This document shows, one piece after another, positions 12,294-48,172 of a DNA stretch of 64,000 bases. Location: assembly GCA_019058445.1 (NCBI GenBank), contig JAHPZA010000010.1, forward strand, positions 256,001 to 320,000, given 5' to 3'. The stretch is from Promethearchaeota archaeon (GTDB lineage Archaea; Asgardarchaeota; Lokiarchaeia; Sigyniarchaeales; SOKP01). The notes beneath the pieces were generated by a model, which worked only from the letters and a program-made list of their open reading frames with translations, did no database searches and was not told where the DNA came from. Positions within the stretch are counted from its first letter, which is position 1. Every line of letters starts with the position of its first letter. The translations under genes were made by a program, and so were the position numbers.

Positions 12294-13390
12294 GATGATC
12301 TCCTCATGAAATTATTTATTTCTAATTTAATACGCGCTAGTTCCTCATCGTTCAAAAGGGGTGAGAGGGGTAAGGAGACTATTTTTTTAACTATTTCCTC
12401 AGTTACGGGTAATTTAGGTTGTTTCCCATATAAATCTTCAATAATAGGTTGTTTATGAACTGGAATAGGATAATAAAGACCTGTTGCAATTTTCCTCTCC
12501 TTGAAAAACTTAATAAATTCATCTCGATCTTCTAATTGAATCGTATAGACATAATAAGAACATTTGGCCCAATCTCTTTCGACAGGTAGCTTCACGTTTG
12601 AATACTGCCTTAAAAAATCATTATAAACCTGGACAATAATTCTTCTTCTTTCAATCCATTCAGATAAATGTTTTAATTGTAATTTACCTATGACTGCTTG
12701 AATTTCATTTAAACGAAAATTCAATCCTAAATTGGCATTCTCATATTTTGAAGATCGCCCATGATCTCTACGCAATTTCAAAATTTCACCGTATTTGTCA
12801 TTATTAGTTACTATCATACCTCCATCACCTCCTACTGTCATAGACTTTGATGGAAAGAAGCTAAATACACCGAGATCTCCAAGAGCTCCAACTTTTTTAT
12901 TTTTATATTCTGAGCCATGAGCTTGACAAGCATCTTCAATTACTTTGATATTTTTCTCCTTAGCAATCTCGAGTATCGGGTCCATATCGACGGGATTGCC
13001 ATACAGATGCACTGGAGTTATAACTTTGGTTTTAGATGTTATTTTTTCTTTAACATCCTCAACGTCCATGCAATACGTATCTGGATCAACATCAACAAAT
13101 ACAGGTTTTGCTTTAAAAAATGCGAGAGGTGAAGCTGTTGCGATAAAGGTATGAGAGGGTAAAATTACCTCATCACCCGGTTTTAAATTCATTTCATAAT
13201 AAGATAAGAATAAAGCAGCTGTACCTGAACTAACCCCTATAGCGTATTTTACTCCTAAATATTCTTTAAAATCATTTTCAAAAGCTTTAAGATTAGGGCC
13301 ATTTATATAATACCCCGTGTCAAGTACTTTAATGACTTCATTTCTAATTACATCATCCATGTACATTTTAACTAGCTTAATTTCTTCCAT
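12290..13390 (-). CDS. DegT/DnrJ/EryC1/StrS PLP-dependent sugar aminotransferase (WbpE-like)
   Basis: SSGTAAL, TFIATA, PVHLYG, EDACQAHG, FSFFPSK, GDGGM, GLNFRL. Confidence 0.92.
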   Translation of the reverse strand: MEEIKLVKMYMDDVIRNEVIKVLDTGYYINGPNLKAFENDFKEYLGVKYAIGVSSGTAALFLSYYEMNLKPGDEVILPSHTFIATASPLAFFKAKPVFVDVDPDTYCMDVEDVKEKITSKTKVITPVHLYGNPVDMDPILEIAKEKNIKVIEDACQAHGSEYKNKKVGALGDLGVFSFFPSKSMTVGGDGGMIVTNNDKYGEILKLRRDHGRSSKYENANLGLNFRLNEIQAVIGKLQLKHLSEWIERRRIIVQVYNDFLRQYSNVKLPVERDWAKCSYYVYTIQLEDRDEFIKFFKERKIATGLYYPIPVHKQPIIEDLYGKQPKLPVTEEIVKKIVSLPLSPLLNDEELARIKLEINNFMRRSS

Positions 13391-30097: not shown

Positions 30098-31321
30098 GTG
30101 CCACACAAAAAATATACTATGAAAAATGTACCACAGGGTAAAAAAAAGAGAGAATTATTCCAAATCTTATTTTTGGGTTTTATTTCCTTTTCACTAATTT
30201 TCTATTTTTATTATATTAGTGATACTTTGACAGTTCCAACGAACTTACCGAAAGTCTACATTACTTGTAATTCTGATATTAGTAAAAATCGTTATAGAGA
30301 ATGTGTAATTGAAGTAGAATATGATTCTACATTAGCAGATGTTAGACTAAGAGGCAATGCTAAAACAAGATACGATAAGAAAGAATACCGAGTACGACTA
30401 TATCAACCGAAATCGTTTGTAGGAATGCGTCGTGACGATGACTGGCAACTTTTTGCAATGTATGATGACTTTACATATATGAGAACTAAGTTAGCATTCG
30501 ATGTATGGCGTAGTCTGGAGCCTTCAAATCCAACGGCTATTTTACCAGACTCGGAATATGTAAATCTTTATTTAAACAATGAATACAAAGGTCTTTATTT
30601 ATTAGCAGAAAAAAATGATAGGAGATTATTCGGATTGGATCACCCAAGAAATAATACAGATTCGAGTTTAATATTTCAAGCTGAACCCTTTACACTGCTT
30701 AGAGAATATGATAAAGATGTCTGGCAACAAGACCTCCCAGATCCTGAAAATGTCAACATCATAGATGAGATATTAACTAACTTAATTTATTTTATCAATA
30801 ATACATCTAATGAGGATTTTTTTAATCCAGTTTCGGGGATTTATTCAATTTTTTATAAACAAAACTTAATAGATTTTTTTATATTTAATCTTTTCATACT
30901 TCATGGGGATTTTTGGCATCATAATTATTTTATTGTTAGAAATACTAATCCCAGTAAATTCTTTATGATTCCATGGGATTTTGATATAAGTTTTGGTCAA
31001 GCAGCTGAACATATTTATAGCGCTAATGAGAATCCAGAATCAGAAATTAGACGAGTAAATGAATTATTTCGTCGTTTACTAGATTATGAAGAATTTAGGG
31101 CAGATTGTAAAAATCGATGGATAAATCTTAGAAATAATCTTTGGACAAATGGATTTTTTGAAGATCTGATTTTAGATAATTATGAAGAAATAAAAGATAG
31201 TTTACCACTTGATTGGAATATGTGGTATTCTAAAATAGATGATAAAAATTATATAAAAATTCTAATTGAATGGATACCTGAGCGTTTAGAATATTGCGAT
31301 TCTTATTTCTCTCAATTTTAA
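30098..31321 (+). CDS. cotH: CotH-family atypical kinase with N-terminal membrane anchor
   Basis: RLRGN...KKEYR, YVNLYLN.EY.GLYLLAEK, DFWHHNY, IPWDFD; single N-terminal TM helix. Confidence 0.88.
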   Translation: MPHKKYTMKNVPQGKKKRELFQILFLGFISFSLIFYFYYISDTLTVPTNLPKVYITCNSDISKNRYRECVIEVEYDSTLADVRLRGNAKTRYDKKEYRVRLYQPKSFVGMRRDDDWQLFAMYDDFTYMRTKLAFDVWRSLEPSNPTAILPDSEYVNLYLNNEYKGLYLLAEKNDRRLFGLDHPRNNTDSSLIFQAEPFTLLREYDKDVWQQDLPDPENVNIIDEILTNLIYFINNTSNEDFFNPVSGIYSIFYKQNLIDFFIFNLFILHGDFWHHNYFIVRNTNPSKFFMIPWDFDISFGQAAEHIYSANENPESEIRRVNELFRRLLDYEEFRADCKNRWINLRNNLWTNGFFEDLILDNYEEIKDSLPLDWNMWYSKIDDKNYIKILIEWIPERLEYCDSYFSQF

Positions 31322-31361
31322 ATAAAAGAATTGCATAATTTTAACAGGTATCTCTTGATTT

Positions 31362-32126
31362 TTATATTTCTACGGAACTACTACCCTCAATTACTTTTAC
31401 ATGAGTAATATATTTGAAATTTTGAATTTCTCTTAAAAGTTGAGCCTTAGGAGTGAGTTTATCTTCAAAGATTTCTCTACTTTTTCTAAAACTCGTTAAT
31501 GAGAACAAGGGCGATTTTTGTTTAAAAGTAACGATAAAACTAAGACGATTTGTTTTCTCATCGACAGAATCAACACCTAATAAAGAATAGTATTTCAAAT
31601 AAGAGATAAAGATTGGAGTTAAGATTTTAGCATAATCTTTATCAACAGGGAAGTACATCTCTAAAATATCTTGAGCTAACCCTTTTTGACCAAATTGAGT
31701 ATAGGTCAGGAAATACATTAGACCACAGCCGACAAAGGTACCAATCATTGCTAAAGGATAAAACCTTGTGCCACAAGCCATACCAATGGCCATAACAAAG
31801 AAAATAAACCCTACATCTCTGCTATCTTTTACAGCATTTCTAAACCGAACGATAGAGAGTGCTCCGAGTAAAGTAAATGCACGAGCGATGTTTGTTCCGA
31901 TTATTAACATTACCATTGCAACAATCATTCCAATGAGTACTAAATTCTGCGTAAAAGTTTGAGAATAACTTACTCCTCTATGAGTTCCTCTATAAGTTAT
32001 TGCAATAATAATGCTTAAAACTAGACTCCAGAAAAGGACAAGAAGGACATCCATTAAATCTATTTCAGTCCCTAAATTACGGAAAGATTGTTCCATAAAG
32101 ATCGTAAAAAAATCTTGAAATATCAT
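31362..32126 (-). CDS. DUF4956 membrane protein (TM bundle plus ACT-like C-terminus)
   Basis: NIARAFTLLGALSIVRFRNAVKD.RD..FIF..MAIGMACG signature. Confidence 0.9.
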   Translation of the reverse strand: MIFQDFFTIFMEQSFRNLGTEIDLMDVLLVLFWSLVLSIIIAITYRGTHRGVSYSQTFTQNLVLIGMIVAMVMLIIGTNIARAFTLLGALSIVRFRNAVKDSRDVGFIFFVMAIGMACGTRFYPLAMIGTFVGCGLMYFLTYTQFGQKGLAQDILEMYFPVDKDYAKILTPIFISYLKYYSLLGVDSVDEKTNRLSFIVTFKQKSPLFSLTSFRKSREIFEDKLTPKAQLLREIQNFKYITHVKVIEGSSSVEI

Positions 32127-32163
32127 ATAAAAAACACCAATTTTGTATTATAAAAAAACTTTA

Positions 32164-32904
32164 TTAAACAATACTCAGTATTATTCCACGCTCTAAACCA
32201 CTGGCAAATTTGCTCATTTTTTGTTGGAGAATATTATTTCTTTGAAGCATTTTAACTGCCCAATGAGGGATAAAACTATTGAATTTAATTTCCATTATGG
32301 ATACATTAGGAGAAACTACATACTTAGAACCATTTCCAACATGAAGATCAAAGTTAAAATATCGGACTCTAACATTTGTATCAAATGTTATCCTAAATCT
32401 ATTCTCCAATCTATCCATATATGGTTGCCTATCATAGCAGACAACACAAACGGGTTGTAAACTATATCTCTTATATAGATACCAAATTTCATCTAAATTT
32501 ACTTTATCTTCCTTACTAGCGTTCTCATAGAAGTTTTGTGCTTCAGGAGTTGTGTTATCAATAATTTTGAAAGCATCATTAAATGGAACAAGAACTCTAT
32601 TTTTAGATACATTTTCATTATTTTTTTTTTTTAGCTCGATAAAAACCAATTCATCATCCCCGTTTTGAAAATCGGGGTAGAACCGTATCCTTAATTTTAT
32701 TCTCGTCTTAATTCCATTAGTTTTTTCAAAAAAAGATTTTTTGAATGGTGAGTCAAAATATACACTTCTCACTTCATAATGATGATTGTTAGTAACATGT
32801 GTATCTAATTTCATAAAAGGTTGGATTTGTCTAATTACATTATTTTGCTGTATCATTGAAAGTTGATACTTAATCTCAAATCGATTGAAATATTTTTGCT
32901 GCAA
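32164..32904 (-). CDS. VTC-domain (CYTH-like) polyphosphate polymerase domain protein
   Basis: RFEIKY, VRSVYFDS, KLRIRFY, FIELKKK, YDRQPY, RITFD, IMEIKF, SKF. Confidence 0.92.
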   Translation of the reverse strand: MQQKYFNRFEIKYQLSMIQQNNVIRQIQPFMKLDTHVTNNHHYEVRSVYFDSPFKKSFFEKTNGIKTRIKLRIRFYPDFQNGDDELVFIELKKKNNENVSKNRVLVPFNDAFKIIDNTTPEAQNFYENASKEDKVNLDEIWYLYKRYSLQPVCVVCYDRQPYMDRLENRFRITFDTNVRVRYFNFDLHVGNGSKYVVSPNVSIMEIKFNSFIPHWAVKMLQRNNILQQKMSKFASGLERGIILSIV

Positions 32905-33189
32905 TTTTATCTTACACTCTATACTCTTTAATACAACAATTTAAGTAATTAATAGTGTAATAAAAATTTCTTTTTTTATATTTAATCCATTTAATTAAAA
33001 GTCTGAAGTGTTTAGGATATATCGCTCAAAAGTCGTTAATTTCGATTATTTTAATAAAAATCAAATGAGATAATAAGGATTTTAACCAAAACACTCTAAT
33101 TATAATTTAGGAGGCATAAAGTTAAAAGTGTGCATTATTTATGAAAATTTAAGATATATGATAATGATGAAACTTGGTTCAAAATCTTC

Positions 33190-34473
33190 ATGATTAAATC
33201 AAAGATCTTAATAACCAAATTACCAATGCACCGACGGAAAAAGGAAGTATTGGTGCTATTTACTACAGGAATTCTCGCGTTTTCAGCAATTTTTTTTTAT
33301 TCCTATATCTTGTATTCCCAATTAAGTCTTTTGGAATTTCCTAGAATAAATATTACATGTGATGATGAAAGCCTTACTAATGAAGAGTATATAAATTGTA
33401 CCTTTGAACTAGAAAATGAGGAGGATTCTGAAAGAATCCTACTCTTAAATTCTAAGATTCGAATTAGGGGATCAGGATCAGGCGGAGGAGTTCATCGATG
33501 GCCAAAAAAGGGATATCGTATTGAATTATCTCAGCAAGTGTCATTATTAGGAATGAGAAAGGAAGATGATTGGATTTTATTTGCTTTATATACAGATTAT
33601 CCGAGGATGAGAATTAAGCACTCCATGGATATTTGGCGGAGTTTAGAGTCGAGTGATCCAACTGCTATTTTACCAGAATCCGAATACGTTATTTTATATC
33701 TTAACGGTGAATTTCAGGGGCTTTATTTACTTGCAGAAAAAAATAATAGAAGACTATTCGGACTTGATGATGCAACAAATAATATTAATTCTAGTCTCAT
33801 CATTCAAGCGGGACCGAATGCTTTTTTTACGGAATATGATGAAACTGAATGGGAACAAGACTGGCCAAATGAGGATGACGATATATTTATTAAAGATAAA
33901 ATTATGACTGAATTAATAGATTTTATTAACAATTCTAAAGATGAAGAATTTTTTAATGACAAAAAGGGTATTTATAGTATTTTTGATAAGCAAAATTTAA
34001 TTGATTTTTATGTATATAATTACTTCATACTCCATGAAGATTTTTGGAGGAAAAATTATTTTATCGTCAGAAATAGCGAACCAAGCAAATTTTTTTTAGT
34101 TCCATGGGATTTTGATCACGCACTAGGACAGTATATGGATAAAACATATCCTTTTTATATGGATCCTGAATCTGAACTTAGAAAAAACAATGAATTATAT
34201 AATCGTCTTTTAGATAATAAAGAATTCAGAATGGAATGTAAGCTACGTTGGTTTCAATTAAGAGAAGAACTGTGGACTGAAGAGTTTTTCTTAGAGATGT
34301 GTGAAGATTATTATGAAACAATAAAGCCTATTTTGGAATATGATACAAGTGTATGGAATCCTTTTTTGATAAAAGAAAGTTGGAATAATGATGTGGATGA
34401 ATCTGTCTCAGAATTGATTGAGTGGATTCCTAACAGAATTGAATTTTGTGATGATTATTTTGCTCAATTTTAG
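33190..34473 (+). CDS. cotH: CotH-family atypical kinase with N-terminal membrane anchor, paralogue 2
   Basis: RIRGSGS...PKKGYRIEL, GLYLLAEK, DFWRKNY, VPWDFD. Confidence 0.88.
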   Translation: MIKSKILITKLPMHRRKKEVLVLFTTGILAFSAIFFYSYILYSQLSLLEFPRINITCDDESLTNEEYINCTFELENEEDSERILLLNSKIRIRGSGSGGGVHRWPKKGYRIELSQQVSLLGMRKEDDWILFALYTDYPRMRIKHSMDIWRSLESSDPTAILPESEYVILYLNGEFQGLYLLAEKNNRRLFGLDDATNNINSSLIIQAGPNAFFTEYDETEWEQDWPNEDDDIFIKDKIMTELIDFINNSKDEEFFNDKKGIYSIFDKQNLIDFYVYNYFILHEDFWRKNYFIVRNSEPSKFFLVPWDFDHALGQYMDKTYPFYMDPESELRKNNELYNRLLDNKEFRMECKLRWFQLREELWTEEFFLEMCEDYYETIKPILEYDTSVWNPFLIKESWNNDVDESVSELIEWIPNRIEFCDDYFAQF

Positions 34474-34735: not shown

Positions 34736-35149
34736 ATGAATTGGAGAATTAAAACAATGGAGAAAAGCTTTTCAATTTCTAAAAAAATAACAAAAGAAGA
34801 TATCCAGAAGTTTATTGAAATTAGTGGTGATGACAATCCTGTTCATACAGATGAAAATTTTGCTAAGAGAACAATTTTTAGAAAACCTATAGCACACGGC
34901 TTAATTTCTGCTTCTTTAATATCCTGTGGTTTAACTAAACTTATGGGAGAAGGAAATATTTGGCTCACTCAAGATTTAAAATTTGAAAAACCAGTATATA
35001 TAGGTGATGAGATAACAGCAAATCTGAAAATTGTAAACATTGATTCGAATAAAGTATATAAAATTGAAACTACTTTGACAAACCAAAACGGAAAAGTTGT
35101 TATTAGCGGTTTTGCTGAATGCAAACTTTTCCCCGTTAAAAAGACTTAA
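34736..35149 (+). CDS. MaoC/PhaJ-family (R)-specific enoyl-thioester hydratase/dehydratase
   Basis: SGDDNPVHTD...PIAHG, F.KPVYIGD; probable start at ATG 34757. Confidence 0.9.
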   Translation: MNWRIKTMEKSFSISKKITKEDIQKFIEISGDDNPVHTDENFAKRTIFRKPIAHGLISASLISCGLTKLMGEGNIWLTQDLKFEKPVYIGDEITANLKIVNIDSNKVYKIETTLTNQNGKVVISGFAECKLFPVKKT

Positions 35150-35179
35150 TTTGTTAGTTTAATTATAAAAATTGAAGAA

Positions 35180-35989
35180 TTGATGCAAAATATTAAATTA
35201 CCTTATTATCTTTCTTTCGATAAATTGCTATACTCAACAAACCTATATGGTTATGAATATAATTTTTATACTGCTATGATAAGCAATAACTTCATTTTAA
35301 TTGGTCATAGCTCAAAAAACCCTAAAAAAGGAAATAGGCAGAAAGCAATCAATAAAATATTAAAAAGTAGGTTAATTTGGAATAAATCTGAATTAAAAGC
35401 TCTCAATTTAATCTTAGGGGAGAAGCAATTATATAAAATTACCGAATGGATTTTAACTAGAATATTATTAAAGTTAGGATTAATTTTATTCTGGAAGGAA
35501 TGCGATACTAATATAAAATGTTCCATAAAAGAGATCTCACTAGAGAAAAATCACTTGAATAAGCCAAATATTAAAATTATTTCAAATAACAATACTTTAT
35601 CAAACCATAAATCTTTCGTATCAATTTCACACTCTAAAAAAGAAGTTTTTGTAGCTCTATGCAATAATCCCATTGGAATTGATACTGAACTAATAGATAA
35701 TCATTCGGAATCCTGGGAAAACAAAATCGTTTCAGAACTAGAAATTATAAATCTAAGTTATTTGCTAAAAAAATGCTGTGATTTATCGAAAGAAACAATA
35801 CTTACGATCATATGGGCTCTAAAAGAATCAACATTAAAGATCCAAGATGAGATTTCAATAGGTTCTTTACCAGAAATAGTTATTAGTATAGATAATAATA
35901 GAATAATAACTAGAGCTCCCACAAACAATAGAATCTATTATAACTATATTTCATTTAATAATGATTCTGTCTTAGTACTAACGATTTAA
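35180..35989 (+). CDS. 4'-phosphopantetheinyl transferase (Sfp/AcpS superfamily)
   Basis: KP...VSISHS, PIGIDTE, WALKESTLK motifs. Confidence 0.82.
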   Translation: MMQNIKLPYYLSFDKLLYSTNLYGYEYNFYTAMISNNFILIGHSSKNPKKGNRQKAINKILKSRLIWNKSELKALNLILGEKQLYKITEWILTRILLKLGLILFWKECDTNIKCSIKEISLEKNHLNKPNIKIISNNNTLSNHKSFVSISHSKKEVFVALCNNPIGIDTELIDNHSESWENKIVSELEIINLSYLLKKCCDLSKETILTIIWALKESTLKIQDEISIGSLPEIVISIDNNRIITRAPTNNRIYYNYISFNNDSVLVLTI

Positions 35990-36004
35990 AGATTCTAATT
36001 AAAT

Positions 36005-37291
36005 TTACCTTCCAATATAGACTGTAACCCAGTTAACTAATCTTGACAAGAATAGCATTCCATCCCATGGGGAATCAAATAAATGCATTTGTCCCAGATT
36101 TACACACCGAGATACTCCCCGCATTGTAACTTGATTCGCGAAATCAAGTAATTTAGATTTGTTTTCTATAGCGCAACCTATAGTTTGGACTTTTTTAGTA
36201 ATTAAAGGGATAAGTTGCTGTATGGAATCTATCTGCTTAATAAATATTGTTCTAGATTCAACAGGTTCCTCTAATGTCAAATCATTATTTATTAAAATTG
36301 TCCAATCATTTTCCCAAGGACAAATTACCGATTTTGAGGGACTCAGAGCGTAATCTGCTCTTACATTTATGATTTTTGTGGTTATATATTGATCAATCTC
36401 GGTTTTAGGATATCTTCTTGCTGCTTTTTTGAATTCTTCAGCTATGATTTGCGCTATTTCGTTTAAAGATTTGTTACTTCTTTCAAAAAATACAGTATGT
36501 GGTGATGTGCATGCTGCTTGATCGAATAAAAGTATATTGTTAATTAGAAAACGGATCTGTCTTGCAAAACTATCTAATTGAATTGCCTCAGTATCAAACA
36601 CAGAAAAGGAATATTTAGGTCCAAAAATAATATCTTCGCAATGTGTTCTTTTAGGTAACCCGGTTATTGCATTAACTGCCTCTTCACCTCCCCACACAAT
36701 TCTTGCATCGGCAATCTCAGAGAGCTCCAGATTAGCTTTATTATTGGTTCTCTCATAGTAGATAATACCCACCGATTTCAGAAGTTCTAACCCGGTAAGT
36801 CCTGTTTCAGTTTTGGTATTTGAAAAAACCTTTAACAACTTTATTATTGCTTCATGGCTATTCGGGGGAATTCTTAAGATATTTGCATTTCCAACAAATA
36901 AAGACTGTAATAATGAAAATAATCCTAAAGTGGGTACATTGCCAGCAATCCAATGACATGCTATACCACGTGGTTGGGCTTTAATACGCTTTTTATCTCC
37001 AACAAAGTTTTCCAAATATTCAAGATTGAAAAAATTTTTCTCAACTATTTGCATAAAATTACTTCGTCTTAACCAGGCTGACAGAAAAATTGCTCCTTCT
37101 AATCGATTAACTTCTCTATTTTTTCTAAGATTCTCGCTATACCCTTGAAAAAGGTCAATGATATCACTTTTCTCAACCTTATTTAAATTTAAAAAGCCTT
37201 CTTGTATTGTGTTTAATAGCGGTCTAATAGAAGCCACTTTTTTACATTGAGGATAATAAAATTCTCCTCCAAACATGGCTAAATCGATCAT
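36005..37291 (-). CDS. luxC: LuxC-family acyl-thioester reductase
   Basis: PRGIACHWIAGNVP, WGGEEAV, FGPKYS, FDQAACTSP (catalytic Cys), PWDG. Confidence 0.9.
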   Translation of the reverse strand: MIDLAMFGGEFYYPQCKKVASIRPLLNTIQEGFLNLNKVEKSDIIDLFQGYSENLRKNREVNRLEGAIFLSAWLRRSNFMQIVEKNFFNLEYLENFVGDKKRIKAQPRGIACHWIAGNVPTLGLFSLLQSLFVGNANILRIPPNSHEAIIKLLKVFSNTKTETGLTGLELLKSVGIIYYERTNNKANLELSEIADARIVWGGEEAVNAITGLPKRTHCEDIIFGPKYSFSVFDTEAIQLDSFARQIRFLINNILLFDQAACTSPHTVFFERSNKSLNEIAQIIAEEFKKAARRYPKTEIDQYITTKIINVRADYALSPSKSVICPWENDWTILINNDLTLEEPVESRTIFIKQIDSIQQLIPLITKKVQTIGCAIENKSKLLDFANQVTMRGVSRCVNLGQMHLFDSPWDGMLFLSRLVNWVTVYIGR

Positions 37292-39496
37292 TTAATTGCC
37301 CCCTCCCAACTCTGCGAATGTGTCTCCACAGCCCCGAGTTTCAGTTTTCTCAACTCTAGAACGAAACTTAAAATATTTCCCTTTTCTGCCACAAGCACAA
37401 TCATCTATACCGCATAACTCACCTATATCTTCTGTTATAATTGCTAATCCGGGATAACTGGAAGGAATCAAACTTAAAATTTCGATTAATCCTGGTTTAC
37501 CAATAGGATTTTCTTTCATAGTGTAAAAATCGCGAATTATTACATCAGCAAAATCGGGTACATGTTTATAACCTTGCTCACAGTCAAGAAAGACTACCCC
37601 TAATTGTTCAACCATTCCATAAAAATCTATCACATTCTCAGGTACAGTGCCAAAAATTTCAGCAAGAGTTTGTGAAAAGATTTTCTTATCGACAGACTGC
37701 GCAGTTAATTTTTTCCATCCGCCGCTATGAATTAATTTCATATTAGGAAAGTTAAGTTTTATGTCAAACTTTAATACTTGGTCAACAAATCGAGTCCAAA
37801 TGATATATGTAAACCCTGATACTAAAATATCGTGTCCAGCATATTTTTCACAAAATTCGTTCAATCTATCGAAATTGAGAACCAATTCACCATTTTCCTC
37901 ATCCATCACATAGACGATACCTTTTGCAAAATTGGATATTCCTCTTACAGCAGCTCCCCGCGCAGATAATGTATCCATATTTGGTATATTTATATTTTCG
38001 GTATCAATTACAAGCAGAGGGCGTCTTTTCCCTCCAAGATAGTTTTTTAAGGTTGAGATCAATGCTTTAGATTGACGAAATGAAGTTTCTTTATTAATGT
38101 AAATTTTGCTTGGAATTCCAGTAGTTGTAGCACTTGATTTTAGAATTCGAAATATTTCTTCGTCAGGACATGTCTTTAAATCAAATTTTTTAAACATGGA
38201 TACAGGAATAGGAGGAATTTGACTTAATGAAAAATAATAGTCCGGATTTCGTCCTATCGATAAATAGAATTCTCTCAATATGGGAGAAAATTCTATATGT
38301 TCCCTAATCCTCTCTGCAATTAAGGGAAGAAGCAATTTATGTTTAGTCTTCTGATTCATTGTAAATTGCTCGTTTGCAAAAAATTCATCAATATTTGATT
38401 TAAGGACATGTCCTGATTTTTGTTCAAGGATCCAATTGATTAAATCGATTAAATTTTCTCTTTTCATTCGGACAGGACTCGTTTTAATAGATGGATCGAT
38501 TAAAGCTATATCTGCCCATTGCTCTGGATTAATATCTTTAAGAACATCTGTGTTCCGAAATTTGTCAAATCCAATGTCCTCATAGAGTTCTAAAAATTCA
38601 TCATATACAACTTGATTGCGCATATTTTTGAGCCATTGAAGAGTTGGCTTTAACACAGTTAAAATCGAACTTGAGTGGGATGTTTTAAATTGTTGTTCTA
38701 GAGCATGTGCTAAGGCATGAACGGCTCCTACGTATGCATTACCTTGCACAACACCGCCAAGATACCCGGCATACATGATTTCTGATAAACCATTTGTATC
38801 GTCTAAATTTTCTTTTATTTTAGAAAATCCTAGTTTCAATAATTCTAAACAACTCCTACTAATAGCTTTTATTAAAGGTGAGCTCGCCATTGAAACTTGT
38901 CCTTCAGAGGCATGAGAGAAGATATCTGCTCCAAAAATAAAAAGATCTTTAATTTCAATTGTCTCGAGAAAAGTATGGTCTAAAATTGCCAAATCGGGTA
39001 AGAAACCCTTATTAATGAATGGTAACTTTTTTCCTTCATTATTATTTAAGACAGCAATAGCAGTAGCTTCAGAACCCGTGCCTGGTGTAGTTGGAATTGC
39101 CACTAATTTTATTGCATTATATTCACAGAATTGTTGATTTTCTAGATCTAAAAATGTCAAATTTGGATTATCTAACAAAACTTTCAACACTTTGGCTGAA
39201 TCAATTACTTTTCCACCTCCAATTGCGACAATAACTTCTGGTTTATTAGTAGAATATCTCTTTTTTAAATTTAGAATAGTTTTTTGATTTGGTGCCTGAA
39301 TGATTTCTTCGTCGATTGACTTTTCTGAAAAATATGTCTTAATTTTTTCATAATATTCAGAATTTTTTATCGTATTCGAAATTAGAATTAAAAATTTTGT
39401 ATATTCTATATGTTTTAAAACAGATACTGCACCTTTTCGATAATATACCTCAGGACTGTTATATATTTTTTTTACCATTAAGTTTTTATTTATCAT
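37292..39496 (-). CDS. Fusion: iron-containing alcohol dehydrogenase (N) plus LuxE acyl-protein synthetase (C)
   Basis: N-half: AIGGGKVIDSAK, IPTTPGTGSEAT, DIFSHA, VHALAH. C-half: IPVSMFK, KSSATT, HSGGWKK, DFYGMVEQ, SYPG...TED, RGCGD. Confidence 0.88.
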   Translation of the reverse strand: MINKNLMVKKIYNSPEVYYRKGAVSVLKHIEYTKFLILISNTIKNSEYYEKIKTYFSEKSIDEEIIQAPNQKTILNLKKRYSTNKPEVIVAIGGGKVIDSAKVLKVLLDNPNLTFLDLENQQFCEYNAIKLVAIPTTPGTGSEATAIAVLNNNEGKKLPFINKGFLPDLAILDHTFLETIEIKDLFIFGADIFSHASEGQVSMASSPLIKAISRSCLELLKLGFSKIKENLDDTNGLSEIMYAGYLGGVVQGNAYVGAVHALAHALEQQFKTSHSSSILTVLKPTLQWLKNMRNQVVYDEFLELYEDIGFDKFRNTDVLKDINPEQWADIALIDPSIKTSPVRMKRENLIDLINWILEQKSGHVLKSNIDEFFANEQFTMNQKTKHKLLLPLIAERIREHIEFSPILREFYLSIGRNPDYYFSLSQIPPIPVSMFKKFDLKTCPDEEIFRILKSSATTTGIPSKIYINKETSFRQSKALISTLKNYLGGKRRPLLVIDTENINIPNMDTLSARGAAVRGISNFAKGIVYVMDEENGELVLNFDRLNEFCEKYAGHDILVSGFTYIIWTRFVDQVLKFDIKLNFPNMKLIHSGGWKKLTAQSVDKKIFSQTLAEIFGTVPENVIDFYGMVEQLGVVFLDCEQGYKHVPDFADVIIRDFYTMKENPIGKPGLIEILSLIPSSYPGLAIITEDIGELCGIDDCACGRKGKYFKFRSRVEKTETRGCGDTFAELGGGN

Positions 39497-39497
39497 A

Positions 39498-41009
39498 TTA
39501 TATTTTCGAATTTTTTTGCTCCATTTTCTTTAAAAATACTTTATCAATCTTCCTTGATATATTTTTAGGAAGTGATTTCATGAATTCTACTTGTTTGGGT
39601 ACTTTATGAATTGGAAAATATTGTTGACAGTGGGAGATAATATCCTTTTCTATAATTTTTGAGTTATCTGATAACGAAACAAACACCTTTAGAGCTTCAC
39701 CTAAAAGATCATCTTTGATTCCAATGATTGCTACTTCTACAACATCTTTAAGCTTCGAAATATGATTTTCTATTTCTTTTGGACCGACACGATGGCCTCC
39801 AACTTTAATGAAATCTGAAGCTCTATCTGTTAAATAGACATATCCCTCATCATCAACAATTCCAAGATCTCCAGTATAAAGTTTGCCTCCTTTCAAAATT
39901 TTTTTAGTTTCTTCAGGATCTTTCCAATAGCCCATCATAATATTACCTCCTGAAGCAACTATCTCACCAACCTCCCCAGGCTTAACGGGGAGACCCTGTT
40001 TGTTTAAAACTTCAATGTTTGTTCCAGGAATACCTTTTCCAATTGAACCTAACTTTGAATCTAACAGTTCTGGGGGTAAATATGATAACCTCGCCGTTGC
40101 TTCAGTTTGTCCATACATAACAAAGATTTTCGTTGTAGGTAAATAATTTTTTAATTCTTCGATATAGGTATTTGTCAATTTACCCCCTGCTTGTTGGATT
40201 AATCTGAGTGTTGGAAATTCCATTTTTTTCAAAGGGGATCTCCTTAATAGTATAGAAAAAACACTAGGAACACCAGCAAAATTCGTACATTCCTTTTCAT
40301 TAATCTCATTCAGAACTTTTCCTGGAAACATGAACATATTATTTAATACAATCTGACCTCCTACTCTTAGATGCGTATGTAATAGCGATGCCCCAAAGCA
40401 ATATGAAAATGGAAGTATTACCATTATTCGATCGAAGTCCTGTAATTGGAGATATTCTATGATTGAATTAGTATTATAACGGAGATTATAATGGCTCAAC
40501 ATAACTCCTTTAGGAGTGCCCGTTGAGCCAGATGTAAAGAATATAATTGCTAGATCATTTTTCTCTCCAATTTCTTTAATGAATCCCTCATTATTTTCCA
40601 AGGTGAAAATATTTACATTAGTATTTTTATCAGTATCAGAAAAAACTACTTTTGTATGAATCCCATAGCTAGTAAATCTTTTCCAGTATTTAGTTTGAAT
40701 GAAAAAAGTATTTATATCACAGCTTTGACATACAAATCGAAAATTTTCCCTACCAAAATCTGGATGGATGGGAACAACAACTCTACCGCTTCCAATAATT
40801 GCTAAATAGGAGGCAATAAAAAAGAAAGAATTATCTCCCATTAAAATTATATTTTCATCAGCTTTAGTTTTTAAAGAGTCTAATTTACCAATAATTTTCA
40901 CTACAAGTGAATAGAGTTCTGAATATGAAAGTACTTTATCTTTATGAAAAATTGCTATCTTATCATTCAAATCTCGCGATTTTTCAAAGAGATATTGTGT
41001 AAAATTCAT
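39498..41009 (-). CDS. AMP-binding (ANL superfamily) acyl-CoA/acyl-ACP ligase
   Basis: FTSGSTGTPKG, YGQTE, TGDLG, PK..SRKID. Confidence 0.92.
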   Translation of the reverse strand: MNFTQYLFEKSRDLNDKIAIFHKDKVLSYSELYSLVVKIIGKLDSLKTKADENIILMGDNSFFFIASYLAIIGSGRVVVPIHPDFGRENFRFVCQSCDINTFFIQTKYWKRFTSYGIHTKVVFSDTDKNTNVNIFTLENNEGFIKEIGEKNDLAIIFFTSGSTGTPKGVMLSHYNLRYNTNSIIEYLQLQDFDRIMVILPFSYCFGASLLHTHLRVGGQIVLNNMFMFPGKVLNEINEKECTNFAGVPSVFSILLRRSPLKKMEFPTLRLIQQAGGKLTNTYIEELKNYLPTTKIFVMYGQTEATARLSYLPPELLDSKLGSIGKGIPGTNIEVLNKQGLPVKPGEVGEIVASGGNIMMGYWKDPEETKKILKGGKLYTGDLGIVDDEGYVYLTDRASDFIKVGGHRVGPKEIENHISKLKDVVEVAIIGIKDDLLGEALKVFVSLSDNSKIIEKDIISHCQQYFPIHKVPKQVEFMKSLPKNISRKIDKVFLKKMEQKNSKI

Positions 41010-41251
41010 AACTCAACTCCATATTGTCTTAAAATTTCTTTCATAGCTCCCAGAGAGTCCATTTCAGTAATATCTTCCACATCTATCTCTATATTAAAAG
41101 TTTCTTCAAATCTACAGATTAATTCCATGTGAGATATGGAACTCCAAGTTTCAATATCATCTGGAGTTAGCTCATCTCCATCAATCACCGTATCTCGGTC
41201 GACTTCGAAAACTTCAGTAAGAATATCAATGAATTCTTCAAGTAGACTCAT
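41006..41251 (-). CDS. Acyl carrier protein
   Basis: 81 aa, acidic, four-helix pattern; ETWSSISHMELI...EETFNIEI corresponds to the WDSLxH phosphopantetheine site; 4-nt overlap with the ligase gene. Confidence 0.85.
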   Translation of the reverse strand: MSLLEEFIDILTEVFEVDRDTVIDGDELTPDDIETWSSISHMELICRFEETFNIEIDVEDITEMDSLGAMKEILRQYGVEL

Positions 41252-41443
41252 ATTAAATATATTAAATCAAAAGTTTTAAAAATTATTAATTCAATATTAG
41301 CTTTCTAATGAGGCTTTGAATTTGGTATCTTCTACTTATTGAATGGAAACCATACTGGCGTGAAAAAAAAAAAGTTTTTTTTATTTAATAGTATAATGTA
41401 AATTAATATAATTCATATTAATTCTAAAAAGGATGTACATTCT

Positions 41444-42091
41444 ATGAAAGTTTTAGCTATTGGCGTTCATCCTGATGATATTGAATTCGGAATGGGTGCG
41501 ACACTTGCAAAACATATACGTCTTGGTCATGAGATCTCAGTTGTGGTTTTAACTGATGGAAAAAGAGATGAGGTTGGAAGATATACTAAATCTCTTGATA
41601 GAAGAGAAGAATCGATTAGAGCATTAAAGATTTTAGGATACAATGACGAGATTAATTTCCTTAATCTCGCTAAAGTAAGTGTTTCCCAGTCTACGATTCA
41701 TGTGATAGAAAAAATAATTAATAAATTCAAACCAAATAGAATTTATACTCATTCTAGGAATGATCGACATCAAGATCACAGAAAATGTAGCTATGCTGTC
41801 TTAAGTGCTGGACGATATATAAGTGAAATACTTCTGTATGAAATATATTCTTCATTACCTGAATTTGTGCCAAATTATTTAATTTGCTTTTCAAAAGAAT
41901 TATTAGATTTAAAAATACAAGCCAATTCTGAATTTAAAAGTCAATTTCAAAATATGGATTTAATTGCTAAAATGATTGAAGGAATGGCAATTAAGAATAG
42001 CTTTATCACATATGCCACTCAGAGACAGGAAATCCAATATACTGAAGCTTTTGAGATAGCAAAAATCGTGAAGCAAAATAATGAAATTTAA
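41444..42091 (+). CDS. PIG-L/LmbE-family N-deacetylase
   Basis: HPDDIE, RREE, D.HQDH, EAF. Confidence 0.9.
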   Translation: MKVLAIGVHPDDIEFGMGATLAKHIRLGHEISVVVLTDGKRDEVGRYTKSLDRREESIRALKILGYNDEINFLNLAKVSVSQSTIHVIEKIINKFKPNRIYTHSRNDRHQDHRKCSYAVLSAGRYISEILLYEIYSSLPEFVPNYLICFSKELLDLKIQANSEFKSQFQNMDLIAKMIEGMAIKNSFITYATQRQEIQYTEAFEIAKIVKQNNEI

Positions 42092-42111
42092 ACCAGGAGG
42101 TTATTAATAAG

Positions 42112-43107
42112 ATGGCTAATTGGATTTTGAGAAAATTTATTGAAAAAGATTTTGAACAACTCTTAGAATGGAGAAAAGTAGTTGCTAGAAGAGATAAAAC
42201 TCCAGAGTATATTGATTGGGAGTATAAAAATGGTCCTTGGGGTCCTGCTGAGACATGGGTGGCAGATGATAATGGCAAACTTGTGGGACAATATTCTACT
42301 CAAAGATATGAAGCTTTTTATTTTGGTGAAAAGATGAAAGCTTCACAGAGTTTTGATACAGGAGCTCATCCAGAATATTTCCATCCTAAAAATAATATCT
42401 TTCAAGCACTTGGAAATAAATTTTTTGAAGAAGAAGCAAAACAAAATATCCATTTCTCAACAGGTTTTCCAAATCAATATTTTTTATTTGGTGGTCTAAG
42501 ATTTGGCTGGAAAATTGTTTGTTCAATTCCTTTATTAGAACATCATAATGTTAACCAATTAGCGATCAAAGAAAGTTCTCGATATAATATAATCCAAATT
42601 CATGAGTTTGATAATGAATTTAAATATTTTAGTGAAAATTTTAAGGACGAGATACCGATATATTTAAACAGAACTCAGAAATATTTAAATTGGCGATTTA
42701 GAGATAAACCAAATTTAGTAAATCCAAAACATCATTATGATTATTTAAAATACAAAATTCTGGATAAAACGGGTGAATTAGTCTCATATATAGTTACTAA
42801 ATATTACCCCTCAGATCAAGGAATGATTCTTCAGCTAATGGATTTTCTCATTCCTCACGAAGAAGAGATATATCAATCTATAATCGCTTTTTTGGTAAAA
42901 GAAGCTAAGAAGAAAAATATTAACAGTATTTCTTTATTTGTAAATCGATTTAATCATTTTAGTGAATTTTTAAAAAATCTCGGATTCAATTTTCCTAAAA
43001 CTAAACGTAAATTTATTGCTAGAAACAATACTAATGTGCTTGATGACAAAGATTTATTTGATGACAAAAATCATTTTATCACTATGGGAGACCATGATGT
43101 TTATTAA
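42112..43107 (+). CDS. GNAT-family N-acyltransferase (tandem GNAT fold)
   Basis: W.Y.NGP.G, LVGQY, DTGAHPEY, GFPN, R...YLNWRF..KP, C-terminal GDHD. Confidence 0.78.
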   Translation: MANWILRKFIEKDFEQLLEWRKVVARRDKTPEYIDWEYKNGPWGPAETWVADDNGKLVGQYSTQRYEAFYFGEKMKASQSFDTGAHPEYFHPKNNIFQALGNKFFEEEAKQNIHFSTGFPNQYFLFGGLRFGWKIVCSIPLLEHHNVNQLAIKESSRYNIIQIHEFDNEFKYFSENFKDEIPIYLNRTQKYLNWRFRDKPNLVNPKHHYDYLKYKILDKTGELVSYIVTKYYPSDQGMILQLMDFLIPHEEEIYQSIIAFLVKEAKKKNINSISLFVNRFNHFSEFLKNLGFNFPKTKRKFIARNNTNVLDDKDLFDDKNHFITMGDHDVY

Positions 43108-43324
43108 AATGGATTAGATTGAAAATATTTTTCATGAATTATTAAAACTCTCACAAGATTTTTTTAAGTTTAAGAAGTTTTGCTATTTTAAGCCTATACC
43201 TACCATTGAAAAAGATGAATTCTCCATTTCTGCCAATTCCTTCTATAATATCATCATCTGGTATTCTCATCACTTTACTATTTCCATAATTTACAATATT
43301 TCCTTCTAATTCCTTAAGTTTGGT
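43104..43324 (-). pseudogene. Remnant of a ParB/Srx-like domain protein
   Basis: Manual translation ...PDDDIIEGIGRNGEFIFFNGRYRLKIAKLLKLKKI / (frameshift) VRVLIIHEKYF resembles the ParB N-domain pattern DGxHRLxxAxxLxxxxIPVxV. Confidence 0.55.
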
Positions 43325-43419
43325 TTATAATTTAATTTATAAGATACGTTAATATGTATTCTAACAATAATAGTTATAAAAAAGTCCCTAGAAATCATTC
43401 ATTATAGTAGCTTTTTGAT

Positions 43420-44586
43420 TTATTTATTTAAAATTTCATTATAAAATGAATACTCTTTTTCGATAATTGTTCTAAATGAACAATTGTCTAAAATAAACTC
43501 TCTTGCCTGATTTGCCATACTTATCCTTAGATTTTTATCCCCATATACTTTAACAATTGCTTCTCGCATAGATTCTGGATTTGTCTCACATAAGTATCCA
43601 TTTTTCTTATGATTAATTATATTATTAATCCCTTGGATATTAGTTCCAATACAGGCAATTCCGCAGCTCATAGCTTCCAATAGTACTTTGGGATTTCCCT
43701 CATCAATCGAAGGTAATATAAAAATTTGATATTGATTCAAAATTTGTGGCAACTCCTTATTTGGAAAGAGACCAAGAAAATTAATATTAATGTTGTGTTT
43801 TTTGGCAATTTTTTCCATTTCTTCTCTATCCTCCCCTTCACCAATGATATCTAAATGAAAATCTTTCAATCCTATAAAAGCTTTTACTAAATTTATTACA
43901 TTTTTACCTCGACGTAAATTCCCAATATATATAATATGCTTATCCTTTTTTGTTATAGCAAGTGGTTTAAAAACAGATTCATCGATATAATTATAAATAA
44001 GTCGTATTCTGTTTTTTTTGTACTTTTTATTCAATCTATAATATTTAATTAAAAAAGGGATATCATAATCGCTTGTAACGATTATTCCGTCTGCCATTTT
44101 ATAAGCAAAAAGTTCAAATAGGAAAATAAAGGAATATCTCATTAGATATTTGATGTAACTCCTGAGATTATTTCTTTTAAATACATTTTTTGTTGCTCTT
44201 AACATTATAAATCCGGATCTAATTATAAGTTTTTTACCATATAGTATTTTCGCAATAAATGAAACCCAACTGCCATAGGTTTGAAAAGCTTTTATGATAT
44301 CAAAATTTACAAATAATTTCTTTAATCTAAATGGAAGAAATATTGATTTTATGAATTTGAGCAAAAAATTTTTAGAATTAACATATTTAGAGATCGGAAA
44401 TAAATGAATCCCTTCTACTAAATTAGCATAATTAAAATCTCTTTGATCCCCATATGTTAAAAAACCATATTCTACATTTTTATTTTTTAGTATTTCATTA
44501 TAAAAAGCATTTTCTCTAAAAATAATACCAGATTCATGCCAATCATATAGCGACATACCAAAGGTAAAAACTAGGAGAGCTTTCAT
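43420..44586 (-). CDS. GT4 glycosyltransferase
   Basis: NYID, YIGNLRRGKN, FILPSIDEGNPKVLLEAMSCG. Confidence 0.92.
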   Translation of the reverse strand: MKALLVFTFGMSLYDWHESGIIFRENAFYNEILKNKNVEYGFLTYGDQRDFNYANLVEGIHLFPISKYVNSKNFLLKFIKSIFLPFRLKKLFVNFDIIKAFQTYGSWVSFIAKILYGKKLIIRSGFIMLRATKNVFKRNNLRSYIKYLMRYSFIFLFELFAYKMADGIIVTSDYDIPFLIKYYRLNKKYKKNRIRLIYNYIDESVFKPLAITKKDKHIIYIGNLRRGKNVINLVKAFIGLKDFHLDIIGEGEDREEMEKIAKKHNININFLGLFPNKELPQILNQYQIFILPSIDEGNPKVLLEAMSCGIACIGTNIQGINNIINHKKNGYLCETNPESMREAIVKVYGDKNLRISMANQAREFILDNCSFRTIIEKEYSFYNEILNK

Positions 44587-44724
44587 TTTAATTAACTGAG
44601 GATAAATTATTCCAAAAGTATTGAGAAATAATAGTGATGGCCCTCATAATAATTTTTTATTATTAATTTTTTCGAGGCAATTATCTTAGATGAGAATGTG
44701 AGAATTAATAAATTAATTATTAAT

Positions 44725-46380: not shown

Positions 46381-47448
46381 ATGAAAATACCTCATAATAA
46401 ACCCTCAATCGATGATAATGAGATAGAAGCATTGAAAGAAGTAATTGAAAGTGGATGGATAGTTCAAGGGGAAAAAGTAAAAGATTTTGAAAATCAAATG
46501 TGTAATTATATTGGTTTAAAAAAAGGTTTTGGAGTAGCGTTATCAAATGGAACCTCAGCACTATATTTAGCCTTGAAGATTTTAGGTATTAATTCTCAAC
46601 TGGATGAAGTATTAGTGCCTAATTATGTATGTTCTGCTGTACTTAATGCAATTTTTATGAATAATGCTACTCCAGTCGTTGTGGATGTTGATGAAGTCGA
46701 TTTTAATATTAAATTTGAAAAAATTAAAGAGAAAATCAATAATAAAACAAAAGTAATCATAATTCCACATACTTTCGGCATTCCCGCTGATGTAATAAGT
46801 ATTAAAGAGTTAGGAATACCAATTATAGAAGATTGTGCCCAAGCATTAGGTTCAAAAATAAATGATAAACACGTAGGTTTATTTGGAGATATAGCAATAT
46901 TTTCTTTTTATGCAACTAAATTGATTACAACGGGTCAAGGAGGTATGATTATTTCAACAAACTCGGAATTCGTTGATAATGCACGGGACTATAGAGAATA
47001 TGATATGCGAAAAGATTATTATCCTCGTTTTAATTTTCAGATGACTGATATACAAGCAGCAATGGGAATAGTTCAATTAAAAAAATTTAATAATTTGTTA
47101 GAAAAGAGAAAAAAAATTGCATATAAATATATAGAAATATGTGAAGAGAAAAATTGGGATTATCAGAAAGCAAAATATTCCAATTTTACTCAAAATTGGT
47201 TTCGATTTGTACTAAAACAGGAACGAGATTTTATTCTTAAGCTCAAAAATAAACTCAATGAAATTGGGGTTAATTGTGTGATTCCTATTGAAAATTGGCA
47301 ACTTTTAAGTGAATATCTCAAGATGAATACAACTGACTTTAAAATTAGCCAGAAAATAACAGAAACAACTCTTTCGTTACCGATTTTTCCAGATTTAATA
47401 GATAATACTGATTTCGAATTAATATTAGAATTTCTAAGGGGAATTTAA
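46381..47448 (+). CDS. DegT-family sugar aminotransferase (4-amino-sugar synthase type)
   Basis: SNGTSAL, EDCAQALG, FSFYATK..TTGQGG, FNFQMTDIQAAMG. Confidence 0.9.
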   Translation: MKIPHNKPSIDDNEIEALKEVIESGWIVQGEKVKDFENQMCNYIGLKKGFGVALSNGTSALYLALKILGINSQLDEVLVPNYVCSAVLNAIFMNNATPVVVDVDEVDFNIKFEKIKEKINNKTKVIIIPHTFGIPADVISIKELGIPIIEDCAQALGSKINDKHVGLFGDIAIFSFYATKLITTGQGGMIISTNSEFVDNARDYREYDMRKDYYPRFNFQMTDIQAAMGIVQLKKFNNLLEKRKKIAYKYIEICEEKNWDYQKAKYSNFTQNWFRFVLKQERDFILKLKNKLNEIGVNCVIPIENWQLLSEYLKMNTTDFKISQKITETTLSLPIFPDLIDNTDFELILEFLRGI

Positions 47449-47449
47449 A

Positions 47450-48172
47450 ATGATTTTAACAGCACATCAACCAGCTTATTTACCTTGGCTTGGTTTTTTT
47501 CATAAAATCGCAATTTCAGATATTTTTGTAGTACTTGATAGTGTACAATATCAAAAAAATTATTTTACGAATCGAAATAAAATTAAAACGGCACATGGAG
47601 ATAGATGGTTAACTATTCCTGTCTTAACATCTGGGCATTTAAATAAAACAATAGCTGAAATGAATATCAATAATAATACCAAATGGCGGAAAAAGCACTG
47701 GAAAACAATCGAATTTAATTATAGAAAAGCTCCGTTTTTTGAAAAATATCGGGTTTATTTTGAAACATTATATCAGAAGAAATGGATCAATCTCTTTGAC
47801 TTACTTTATGAAAATATGATGTTTTTTATTAAGGAACTAGGTATTAAAACTAAAATCCATCTTCAGAGTGAATTCACATTTAAAGAGACAAAACAAGAGT
47901 TAATACTGGAAATGTGCAATTATTTCGATTCAGATGTTTTTGTTTTTGGAAAGGATGGCAAACGCTATGCTGATATAGATTTTTTCAAAAAGAACAATAG
48001 GAAAATCTATTTTCAAGATTACAAGCATCCTACATACCCACAATTATATGATGATTTTCTCTCTAATTTATCAATAATCGATTTGCTTTTTAATGTAGGG
48101 CCAAACAAAGCAATAGAAATTATCATGAAAGATAATGTCACAAAAAGCGATCTTATCAGAAATTATTCTTGA
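47450..48172 (+). CDS. wbqC: WbqC-family protein (putative aminoacyl/glycyl transferase for amino sugars)
   Basis: HQPAYLPWLGFF.K, D.VQY....TNRN, LTIPV, YPQ...F..NLSIIDLLFNVG. Confidence 0.92.
   Translation: MILTAHQPAYLPWLGFFHKIAISDIFVVLDSVQYQKNYFTNRNKIKTAHGDRWLTIPVLTSGHLNKTIAEMNINNNTKWRKKHWKTIEFNYRKAPFFEKYRVYFETLYQKKWINLFDLLYENMMFFIKELGIKTKIHLQSEFTFKETKQELILEMCNYFDSDVFVFGKDGKRYADIDFFKKNNRKIYFQDYKHPTYPQLYDDFLSNLSIIDLLFNVGPNKAIEIIMKDNVTKSDLIRNYS

Follow-up and report, generated by a model that had tools for sequence, protein, structure and literature searches.

The 64-kb stretch of an Asgard archaeal genome analysed here (positions 256001-320000 of contig C10 of the assembly; hereafter the window, in which all gene coordinates are counted) carries an operon for an acyl carrier protein (ACP), an ANL-superfamily ligase, an iron alcohol dehydrogenase (Fe-ADH) fused to a LuxE acyl-protein synthetase, and a LuxC-family reductase, with a MaoC-type hydratase and a 4'-phosphopantetheinyl transferase (PPTase) alongside. 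We consider, with a probability of about two in three, that this locus primes its own carrier protein and belongs to the ACP-ANL-LuxE-LuxC glycan acyl cassettes, of the kind formed by wbeK-L-M-N in Vibrio cholerae and found in flagellin islands, and that it likely makes a small hydroxyacyl decoration of a glycan. The cassette is real, intact and conserved. This type of cassette is known genetically; what the window adds is the fused ADH::LuxE and a cassette uncoupled from its transferase. The original prediction, which was made from the sequence alone and assigned acyl transfer to a neighbouring GNAT, had the outline right, but its choice of transferase was wrong or at least unproven.

Gene content and a self-contained carrier-protein system

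Open reading frame (ORF) listing combined with Pfam and NCBIfam scans places the ACP (41006-41251, minus strand, 81 amino acids (aa)) as the first gene of the operon; it scores 22.8 bits against PF00550, above the cutoff of 20.8 bits, and its helix II bears the serine in the motif WSSISHMEL. There follow on the same strand the ANL-superfamily adenylating ligase (39498-41009, 503 aa; PF00501 and PF13193), predicted to load the ACP and with intact P-loop TSGSTGTPK, YGxTE and TGD motifs; the Fe-ADH::LuxE fusion (37292-39496, 734 aa; PF00465 and PF25137 plus PF04443), whose Fe-ADH part spans residues ~1-345 (38462-39496) and whose LuxE part spans residues ~367-734 (37292-38395); and the LuxC-family acyl-thioester reductase (36005-37291, 428 aa; PF05893, E=8e-73). 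The conserved nucleophile of LuxC, Cys261 within DQAACTSP, and the conserved C-terminal cysteine of LuxE, in RGCGDTF, are kept in the 39 sequences compared. The ORF coordinates agree with the tight packing originally described: ACP and ligase overlap by 4 nucleotides (nt), the ligase and the fusion are separated by 1 nt, and the fusion and LuxC by none.

Convergent with LuxC, and with stop codons 15 nt apart, lies a plus-strand pair. Its first gene encodes a MaoC/PhaJ-type (R)-specific enoyl-thioester hydratase (34736-35149, 137 aa; PF01575, E=6e-22) with the hydratase-2 motif SGDDNPVH; among solved structures it is nearest to 5cpg and 1iq6, both PhaJ (R)-enoyl-CoA hydratases (E ~1e-22). The second (35180-35989, 269 aa, listed with a TTG start) encodes an Sfp-type PPTase, recognised by its Sfp motifs. 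Its PF01648 score is 21.4 bits against a 25-bit cutoff, which homologues in two other genomes (G128 and G332) exceed; the motifs SISHS, GIDxE and WxxKExxLK are invariant across six Asgard homologues, and a profile built from these six matches Bacillus subtilis Sfp (1qr0) with E=5e-6. Counting the PIG-L and GNAT genes beyond the ACP, which we discuss below, all eight genes named by the original prediction are present where it placed them, and in the families it gave.

Short, low-depth contigs from four additional sediment metagenome runs, belonging to two studies, between them span the MaoC/PPTase, PPTase/LuxC, LuxC/ADH::LuxE and ACP/PIG-L junctions, and one contig of run X3 crosses the ACP-PIG-L intergenic region at 100% identity. 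Since contigs from other runs bridge these junctions, the arrangement is not an assembly chimera. Related-strain contigs from the second study (90-99% identity) switch to unrelated sequence exactly at the ACP start, 41250, and have lost 1 nt at 37308, close to where the LuxE frame ends at its 3' side. Two apparent contig joints, at 39277-41365 and 41727-44646, were set aside as noise from related organisms, their sides being 22-23 nt long and of less than 95% likeness.

The ACP is the sole phosphopantetheine-binding (PP-binding) domain in the 4.6-Mb genome, and the PPTase its sole ACPS-family match. A search of the genome for ketoacyl-ACP synthases found no genuine one, the matches scoring at most 22 bits over ~40 residues and being seen in control archaea too. 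Because it holds the sole ACP and the sole PPTase in a genome without a ketosynthase, the cassette is self-contained, which upholds the earlier proposal that it brings its own PPTase to a host otherwise devoid of an ACP system. LuxC is likewise single-copy, and LuxE has one distant paralogue.

The co-travelling of PPTase and cassette extends to other archaea, holding in nine of the ten further archaeal carriers checked. Among the more distant Asgard carriers, a PPTase lies within 3 kb of the cassette in four of five, and in all five methanogen and DPANN carriers the genome's sole PPTase match is of AcpS type and adjoins the cassette genes. It immediately precedes the ACP in L041, L042 and L047, is found just before the ligase in L075, and stands between LuxC and the ligase in L088. 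In L042, from a Woesearchaeota metagenome-assembled genome (MAG), the ORF directly upstream of the cassette ACP (L042:6231-7274, 347 aa) joins the AcpS-type PPTase to an N-terminal part that resembles, by eye, a NeuD/PglD-type hexapeptide acyltransferase. Archaea are generally held to be almost devoid of carrier-protein (phosphopantetheine) chemistry, and our literature searches for ACP or PPTase in Asgard archaea turned up no paper on the subject among the titles listed.

That the host is an Asgard archaeon follows from its ribosomal protein L31e, which matched archaeal control genomes only, and from six eukaryote-type actins (E down to 4e-132), two of which lie on contig C10 and flank the window; the archaeal origin of the contig, on which the earlier claim of novelty depended, is thereby borne out. 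The assembly (4.6 Mb in 10 contigs, 31% GC, 93% complete) is placed by a genome taxonomy tool in the same order as Promethearchaeum syntrophicum MK-D1 (G143, NZ_CP042905.2), and a relative from the same genus is labelled 'Candidatus Hermodarchaeota archaeon' at NCBI. No rRNA was found in searches of the host genome, and Rfam and tRNA scans of the 64-kb window gave no matches. Two of the six actin matches contain in-frame TAA codons (G000:C10:653495-654577 with two stops and C9:593898-595019 with one), and could be pseudogenes, interrupted genes or errors.

Conservation of the cassette and the acyl-transfer step

Counting matches with E<1e-100 together with two fragments, 13 of the 400 genomes of the Asgard phylum have a LuxC orthologue, and these 13 are spread over several families. 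Ligase, Fe-ADH, LuxE and LuxC genes are present in all ten Asgard loci examined, that of P. syntrophicum MK-D1 included, and nine of these keep the order ANL-FeADH-LuxE-LuxC, the exception being L024, whose ligase is inverted and placed downstream; eight loci yielded an ACP gene, and a homologue of the window's PPTase is adjacent in five. MaoC, too, is a true member of the cassette, as had been suggested: in five relatives (L017 and L020-L023) an orthologue with 51-66% identity comes first or second in the operon. The ADH::LuxE fusion is confined to the window's genus, where L025 has it, as do P0002-P0004, three independent proteins from the databases. The nine other Asgard loci have ADH and LuxE as separate genes, the ADH standing at the same position. 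An exhaustive search for LuxE (346 representative clusters, E<=1e-30) returned stand-alone, LuxE::LuxC and ANL::LuxE architectures, with ADH::LuxE in a single cluster. Considering that ANL::LuxE, LuxE::LuxC and FeADH::LuxE fusions all exist, we would argue that these enzymes act as one unit.

When named genomes were scanned with profiles, nearly all of the 80 best loci proved to have the ACP-ANL-LuxE-LuxC core, with a DegT gene nearby in ~30. Nearly every context examined is a glycan or nucleotide-sugar locus, in line with the association originally proposed. The archaeal novelty was overstated: the host is indeed an archaeon, but the cassette also occurs in Methanoregula, Methanospirillum, Methanomassiliicoccus and Woese- and Pacearchaeota MAGs, as well as in many bacteria. 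The nearest non-Asgard LuxE sequences come from Clostridium species, at 55-60% identity. In a FastTree phylogeny of concatenated ANL, LuxE and LuxC sequences, the Asgard sequences form one group, sister to Clostridium plus a Woesearchaeota MAG (support 0.955), and in the LuxE single-gene tree Clostridium is nested inside the Asgard group. The single-gene trees thus leave the direction of transfer undecided, and the internal order of the Asgard sequences departs from taxonomy.

Acyl transfer is where our results part from the original prediction, which had made the GNAT the dedicated transfer enzyme. Across an AT-rich divergent intergenic region of 192 nt, read from the sequence (41252-41443), the ACP faces a plus-strand pair: a PIG-L family de-N-acetylase (41444-42091, 215 aa; PF02585, E=2e-24) with HPDD and HQDH motifs, and a two-domain GNAT (42112-43107, 331 aa; PF13527 plus a weak PF13420 match). 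This GNAT family is almost exclusively Asgard, with ~55 database clusters of which the named ones are labelled Loki-, Odin-, Hermod- or Promethearchaeota, and a search by sequence found no solved relative. In the four other contigs examined it is always preceded by PIG-L, and three of these contigs lack an ACP cassette within 8 kb; the fourth stops 241 nt upstream of PIG-L and so has nothing to say on this point. As the PIG-L/GNAT pair occurs without the cassette, it is an independent Asgard tailoring module. PIG-L is thus probably a neighbour and not a dedicated cassette member, while the GNAT stands as a candidate, and unproven, acyl-transfer enzyme; their place beside the ACP may have functional meaning in this genus, or it may be incidental.

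In the four closest cassette loci (L016-L019), the conserved partner is instead a hexapeptide (LbH) acyltransferase, which in L017-L019 is the leading gene of the cassette operon. In the MK-D1 locus, ACP-ANL-FeADH-LuxE-LuxC is immediately preceded on the same strand by a family-4 phosphoglycosyl transferase; next come an alpha/beta-hydrolase, PPTase, DUF354 and then the LbH acyltransferase overlapping MaoC, with DegT nearby. The best matches to the MK-D1 LbH in the window's genome, at 33-34% identity, are on contig C6 and at 10749-11264 of the window, the latter a WbpD-like LbH. The contig C6 locus (L112, G000:C6:1106000-1124000) encodes a family-4 phosphoglycosyl transferase, a Trm112-like protein, a homologue of Ribophorin-I (Ost1-like), the LbH (L112:10854-11609), DUF354 and a GT4 glycosyltransferase, and has no cassette; it is probably the N-glycosylation locus, syntenic with the locus that hosts the cassette in MK-D1. 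As a separate observation, an HMG-CoA-synthase/KS-III-like protein of unusual length (~570 aa) is conserved near the cassette in MK-D1 and in G138 (L016:632-2353 and L017:2934), and its homologue in the window's genome lies away from the cassette (G000:C9:518880-520484).

Predicted chemistry, rival readings and the MK-D1 linking sugar

Gene content, motifs, operon conservation and order, glycan context, the uniqueness of ACP and PPTase and the co-travelling PPTase are seen directly; the steps that follow are read from the chemistry of the families. The Sfp-type PPTase, the host's only one, would convert the host's only ACP from its apo to its holo form. The ANL ligase would adenylate a short acid that carries a further carboxyl, a C4 diacid like fumarate or malate being the probable substrate, and thioester it to the ACP. 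MaoC would then hydrate a 2-enoyl thioester to the (3R)-hydroxyacyl thioester, and its closeness to PhaJ fits the hydration of a substrate such as fumaryl-ACP. LuxE would adenylate the free distal carboxyl and hand it to the LuxC cysteine, LuxC would reduce it to the aldehyde, and the Fe-ADH fused to LuxE would take the aldehyde to the alcohol, giving a dihydroxybutyryl-type acyl-ACP. Finally, an N-acyltransferase would place the acyl group on an amino sugar, either in a surface glycan or in an N-linked one: presumably the operon-encoded LbH in close relatives, and here perhaps an LbH acting in trans (that of contig C6 or that at 10749-11264) or the adjacent GNAT. That both the ligase and LuxE are adenylating enzymes is most simply accounted for by a substrate that has two carboxyl groups; the dicarboxylate chemistry as such is inferred. 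A route through fumaryl-ACP would lead to 3,4-dihydroxybutyryl-ACP, as opposed to the 2,4-isomer of V. cholerae.

A possible product comes into view in MK-D1, whose glycoproteome, the only one from an Asgard archaeon, contains three linear N-glycans that all start with an unassigned linking sugar of 304.127 Da, tentatively read by the authors as N-acetylhexosamine (HexNAc) plus threonine; two further residues, of 311.08 and 303.10 Da, are also unassigned (PMC11284389). By our computation, an amino-HexNAc bearing an N-dihydroxybutyryl group (C12H20N2O7) has a mass of 304.12705 Da, and it is the sole match among 24 combinations of eight acyl groups with three sugar skeletons; a uronic acid with threonine in amide linkage, the arrangement of Methanococcus, would come to 318.106 Da. 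The mass match is suggestive and not proof. It leads to a broader hypothesis, attractive because the cassette in MK-D1 directly follows the enzyme that handles the linking sugar: that an Asgard carrier-protein pathway with a private PPTase makes a dihydroxybutyryl-type amide on an amino-HexNAc, and that this is the 304.127-Da residue linking all three MK-D1 N-glycans to asparagine. In the lineage of the window, the cassette would have left the N-glycosylation locus (phosphoglycosyl transferase, Ribophorin-I, LbH and DUF354, now on contig C6), fused its ADH to LuxE, and been re-wired to a deacetylase and a GNAT that re-acylate a different sugar. We hold this scenario tentatively, and think it more likely to fail than to stand.

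Several other readings of the locus deserve weighing against a glycan acyl cassette. In the wiring first proposed, PIG-L deacetylates a HexNAc and the GNAT re-acylates the amine with the ACP-borne hydroxyacyl group, the pair having replaced the lost LbH in this genus. The pair does sit upstream of the ACP, where L017-L019 have the LbH, and shares the 192-nt divergent region with it, and the genome has no orthologue of the cassette-type LbH above 34% identity. Yet GNATs usually use acyl-CoA, and this one does not depend on acyl-ACP, as the pair recurs in Loki-, Odin- and Promethearchaeota contigs that lack ACP, ligase, LuxE and LuxC within the 8 kb inspected; the break of the related-strain contigs at the ACP start suggests, moreover, that the junction may vary between strains. 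We therefore consider this wiring unlikely. Alternatively, the product on the ACP could be freed as a small metabolite, for instance a hydroxy acid, lactone or aldehyde, or used by an unrelated pathway, the glycan island being no more than a hot spot for horizontal insertion. That no dedicated transferase is linked to the cassette in the window would suit such a view, as would the mobility suggested by the patchy distribution in Asgard archaea (13/400) and by the sister group of Clostridium and a Woesearchaeota MAG, and the alpha/beta-hydrolase, a possible thioesterase, that sits beside the cassette in MK-D1 and L017. It becomes very improbable in light of the association with DegT, an LbH or PglD-like acyltransferase and a phosphoglycosyl transferase, which recurs across distant lineages, and of the Woesearchaeota MAG fusion, which by eye resembles an LbH::AcpS.

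Least probable of all, in our estimation, is that the cassette is a lux-type fatty-acid reductase supplying long-chain aldehydes or alcohols for lipids or waxes, with no glycan substituent involved. The names of LuxC and LuxE do come from the bioluminescence fatty-acid reductase, and several NCBIfam models for long-chain-fatty-acid ligases match the ligase; however, the ligase falls below all FadD cutoffs, and against the NCBIfam bioluminescence equivalogs the window's LuxC scores 112 bits where the cutoff is 750, so that it is not a lux-operon LuxC, and its LuxE 62 bits where the cutoff is 550. The glycan and nucleotide-sugar contexts speak against it as well, as does the MaoC: the PhaJ (R)-specific enoyl-CoA hydratases, to which it is nearest, work on short chains. 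For making acyl-ACPs a ketosynthase is missing from the genome, and two adenylating enzymes suit a substrate with two carboxyl groups.

We accordingly favour the self-priming glycan acyl cassette, and several points weigh against it. The family as a whole, V. cholerae included, is known genetically and has no established enzyme activity, substrate or product, and the case for homology with the V. cholerae proteins is built solely on protein families and the order of their genes. The nearest solved relatives of the ligase are a mixed set (feruloyl-CoA synthetase, adenylation domains of non-ribosomal peptide synthetases, oxalate- and malonyl-CoA ligases, and FadD), too mixed for sequence comparison to separate short diacids from other acids. 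The operon-linked LbH acyltransferase is absent beside the window's cassette, and the neighbouring GNAT belongs to an independent module. As for the 304.127-Da residue, its formula has many isomers, the authors' HexNAc plus threonine included, and the data come from MK-D1 and not from the organism of the window.

The implications reach beyond this one locus. Carrier-protein chemistry is complete and conserved in the group closest to eukaryotes, and there it would be dedicated to glycan decoration, without a link to lipid synthesis; this bears on the reading of ACP and PPTase genes in Asgard genomes as bacterial-type fatty-acid metabolism. MK-D1 is culturable, carries the cassette in one operon with an initiating phosphoglycosyl transferase, and has N-glycans that start with a sugar of the predicted composition; the chemistry of the whole cassette family, including that of the V. 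cholerae O1 substituent, therefore becomes testable. The gain from the window itself is smaller, and lies in the fused ADH::LuxE variant and in the finding that cassette and transferase are separable.

The glycan island and comparison with known systems

The entire 64-kb window consists of glycan genes, and the surface-glycan island that had been thought probable is confirmed by glycosyltransferases, DegT, a flippase and deacetylases throughout its length. At least 14 glycosyltransferases of the GT4 or GT2 families are accompanied by a Wzx-type flippase, a WbpB/E/D-like trio, two DegT aminotransferases, WbqC, two PIG-L deacetylases, a polysaccharide deacetylase, a sulfotransferase, a methyltransferase, an AsnB-like protein and a radical-SAM/SPASM protein. 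At 10749-13390, a WbpD-like LbH acetyltransferase, a GFO/IDH/MocA oxidoreductase and a DegT stand in a row, the classic trio for a 2,3-diacetamido-2,3-dideoxy sugar. Three proteins of ~600 aa with weak matches to the N- and C-terminal domains of the arabinofuranosyltransferase AftA (2047-3846, 5086-6900 and 23918-25783) are not what archaeal glycan islands usually contain. A compact module of a CotH kinase, DUF4956, a VTC-domain protein and a second CotH kinase (30098-34473) borders the cassette, and at 46381-48172 DegT and WbqC share stop and start codons, with the second PIG-L and the methyltransferase close by; in a related contig (L108) the WbqC gene adjoins the second PIG-L.

The system closest in gene order is that of the V. 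cholerae O1 antigen, where the K-L-M-N(-O) wbe/rfb genes have been put forward as the source of the 3-deoxy-L-glycero-tetronyl (2,4-dihydroxybutyryl) group that perosamine bears (Morona et al. 1995, as cited in PMC12208996). There, RfbK is a carrier protein, WbeL (VC0249, 471 aa) a ligase for 2,4-dihydroxybutanoate, WbeM (VC0250, 1125 nt) an iron alcohol dehydrogenase and wbeN (VC0251, 2478 nt) encodes an acyl-protein synthase/acyl-CoA reductase; VC0249-VC0251 are consecutive, and mutations in them abolish or alter the O1 antigen (PMC12208996, PMC3441752, PMC9915646). These descriptions of rfbK, wbeL, wbeM and wbeN agree with the gene order on which the original prediction drew its parallel. 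As far as family and order can be compared, the two sets share the same succession of carrier, AMP-ligase, Fe-ADH, LuxE and LuxC, and both lie inside a surface-glycan locus with amino-sugar genes. RfbN/WbeN itself did not turn up among the 50%-identity LuxE representatives, in the clusters of ten proteins of ~806-831 aa, or in a 'longer' homology search, nor did any V. cholerae sequence come up in the profile scan of named genomes. The differences are equally plain: LuxE and LuxC are one protein in V. cholerae, whereas in the window LuxE is fused to the ADH and LuxC stands alone; MaoC and an Sfp-type PPTase of its own are extra in the Asgard set; no counterpart of RfbO, which we take to be of the hexapeptide acyltransferase class, adjoins the cassette in the window; and the Asgard host is an archaeon without fatty-acid synthesis.

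A similar core is found in the flagellin glycosylation islands of Aeromonas group II and Enterobacteriaceae, which carry 'fatty-acid-synthesis-like' genes for ACP, FabG, AMP-ligase, LuxE and LuxC (PMC7874193, PMC4875605). The likeness lies in an ACP-ligase-LuxE-LuxC core within a glycan locus, and our LuxE profile recovered gammaproteobacterial loci; in contrast to the window, these islands have a FabG-type reductase and lack an in-line Fe-ADH, MaoC and PPTase, and their LuxE (37-41% identical to that of the window) and LuxC (22-27%) fall in a separate clade. The closest non-Asgard relatives of the ACP-ANL-LuxE-LuxC set are the cassettes of Clostridium (C. tyrobutyricum, C. drakei, C. arbusti and others), two of which even have MaoC after LuxC; unlike the Asgard set, they lack an Fe-ADH between ligase and LuxE, and the Clostridium loci fetched yielded no homologue of the PPTase of the window.

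The proposed transfer step has its own precedent in lipid A synthesis, where the LbH acyltransferases LpxA and LpxD move a (3R)-hydroxyacyl group from ACP onto a UDP-amino sugar. There the acyl group is long-chain and comes from fatty-acid synthesis, but the logic is the same, and in L017-L019 it is LbH genes that head the cassette operon.

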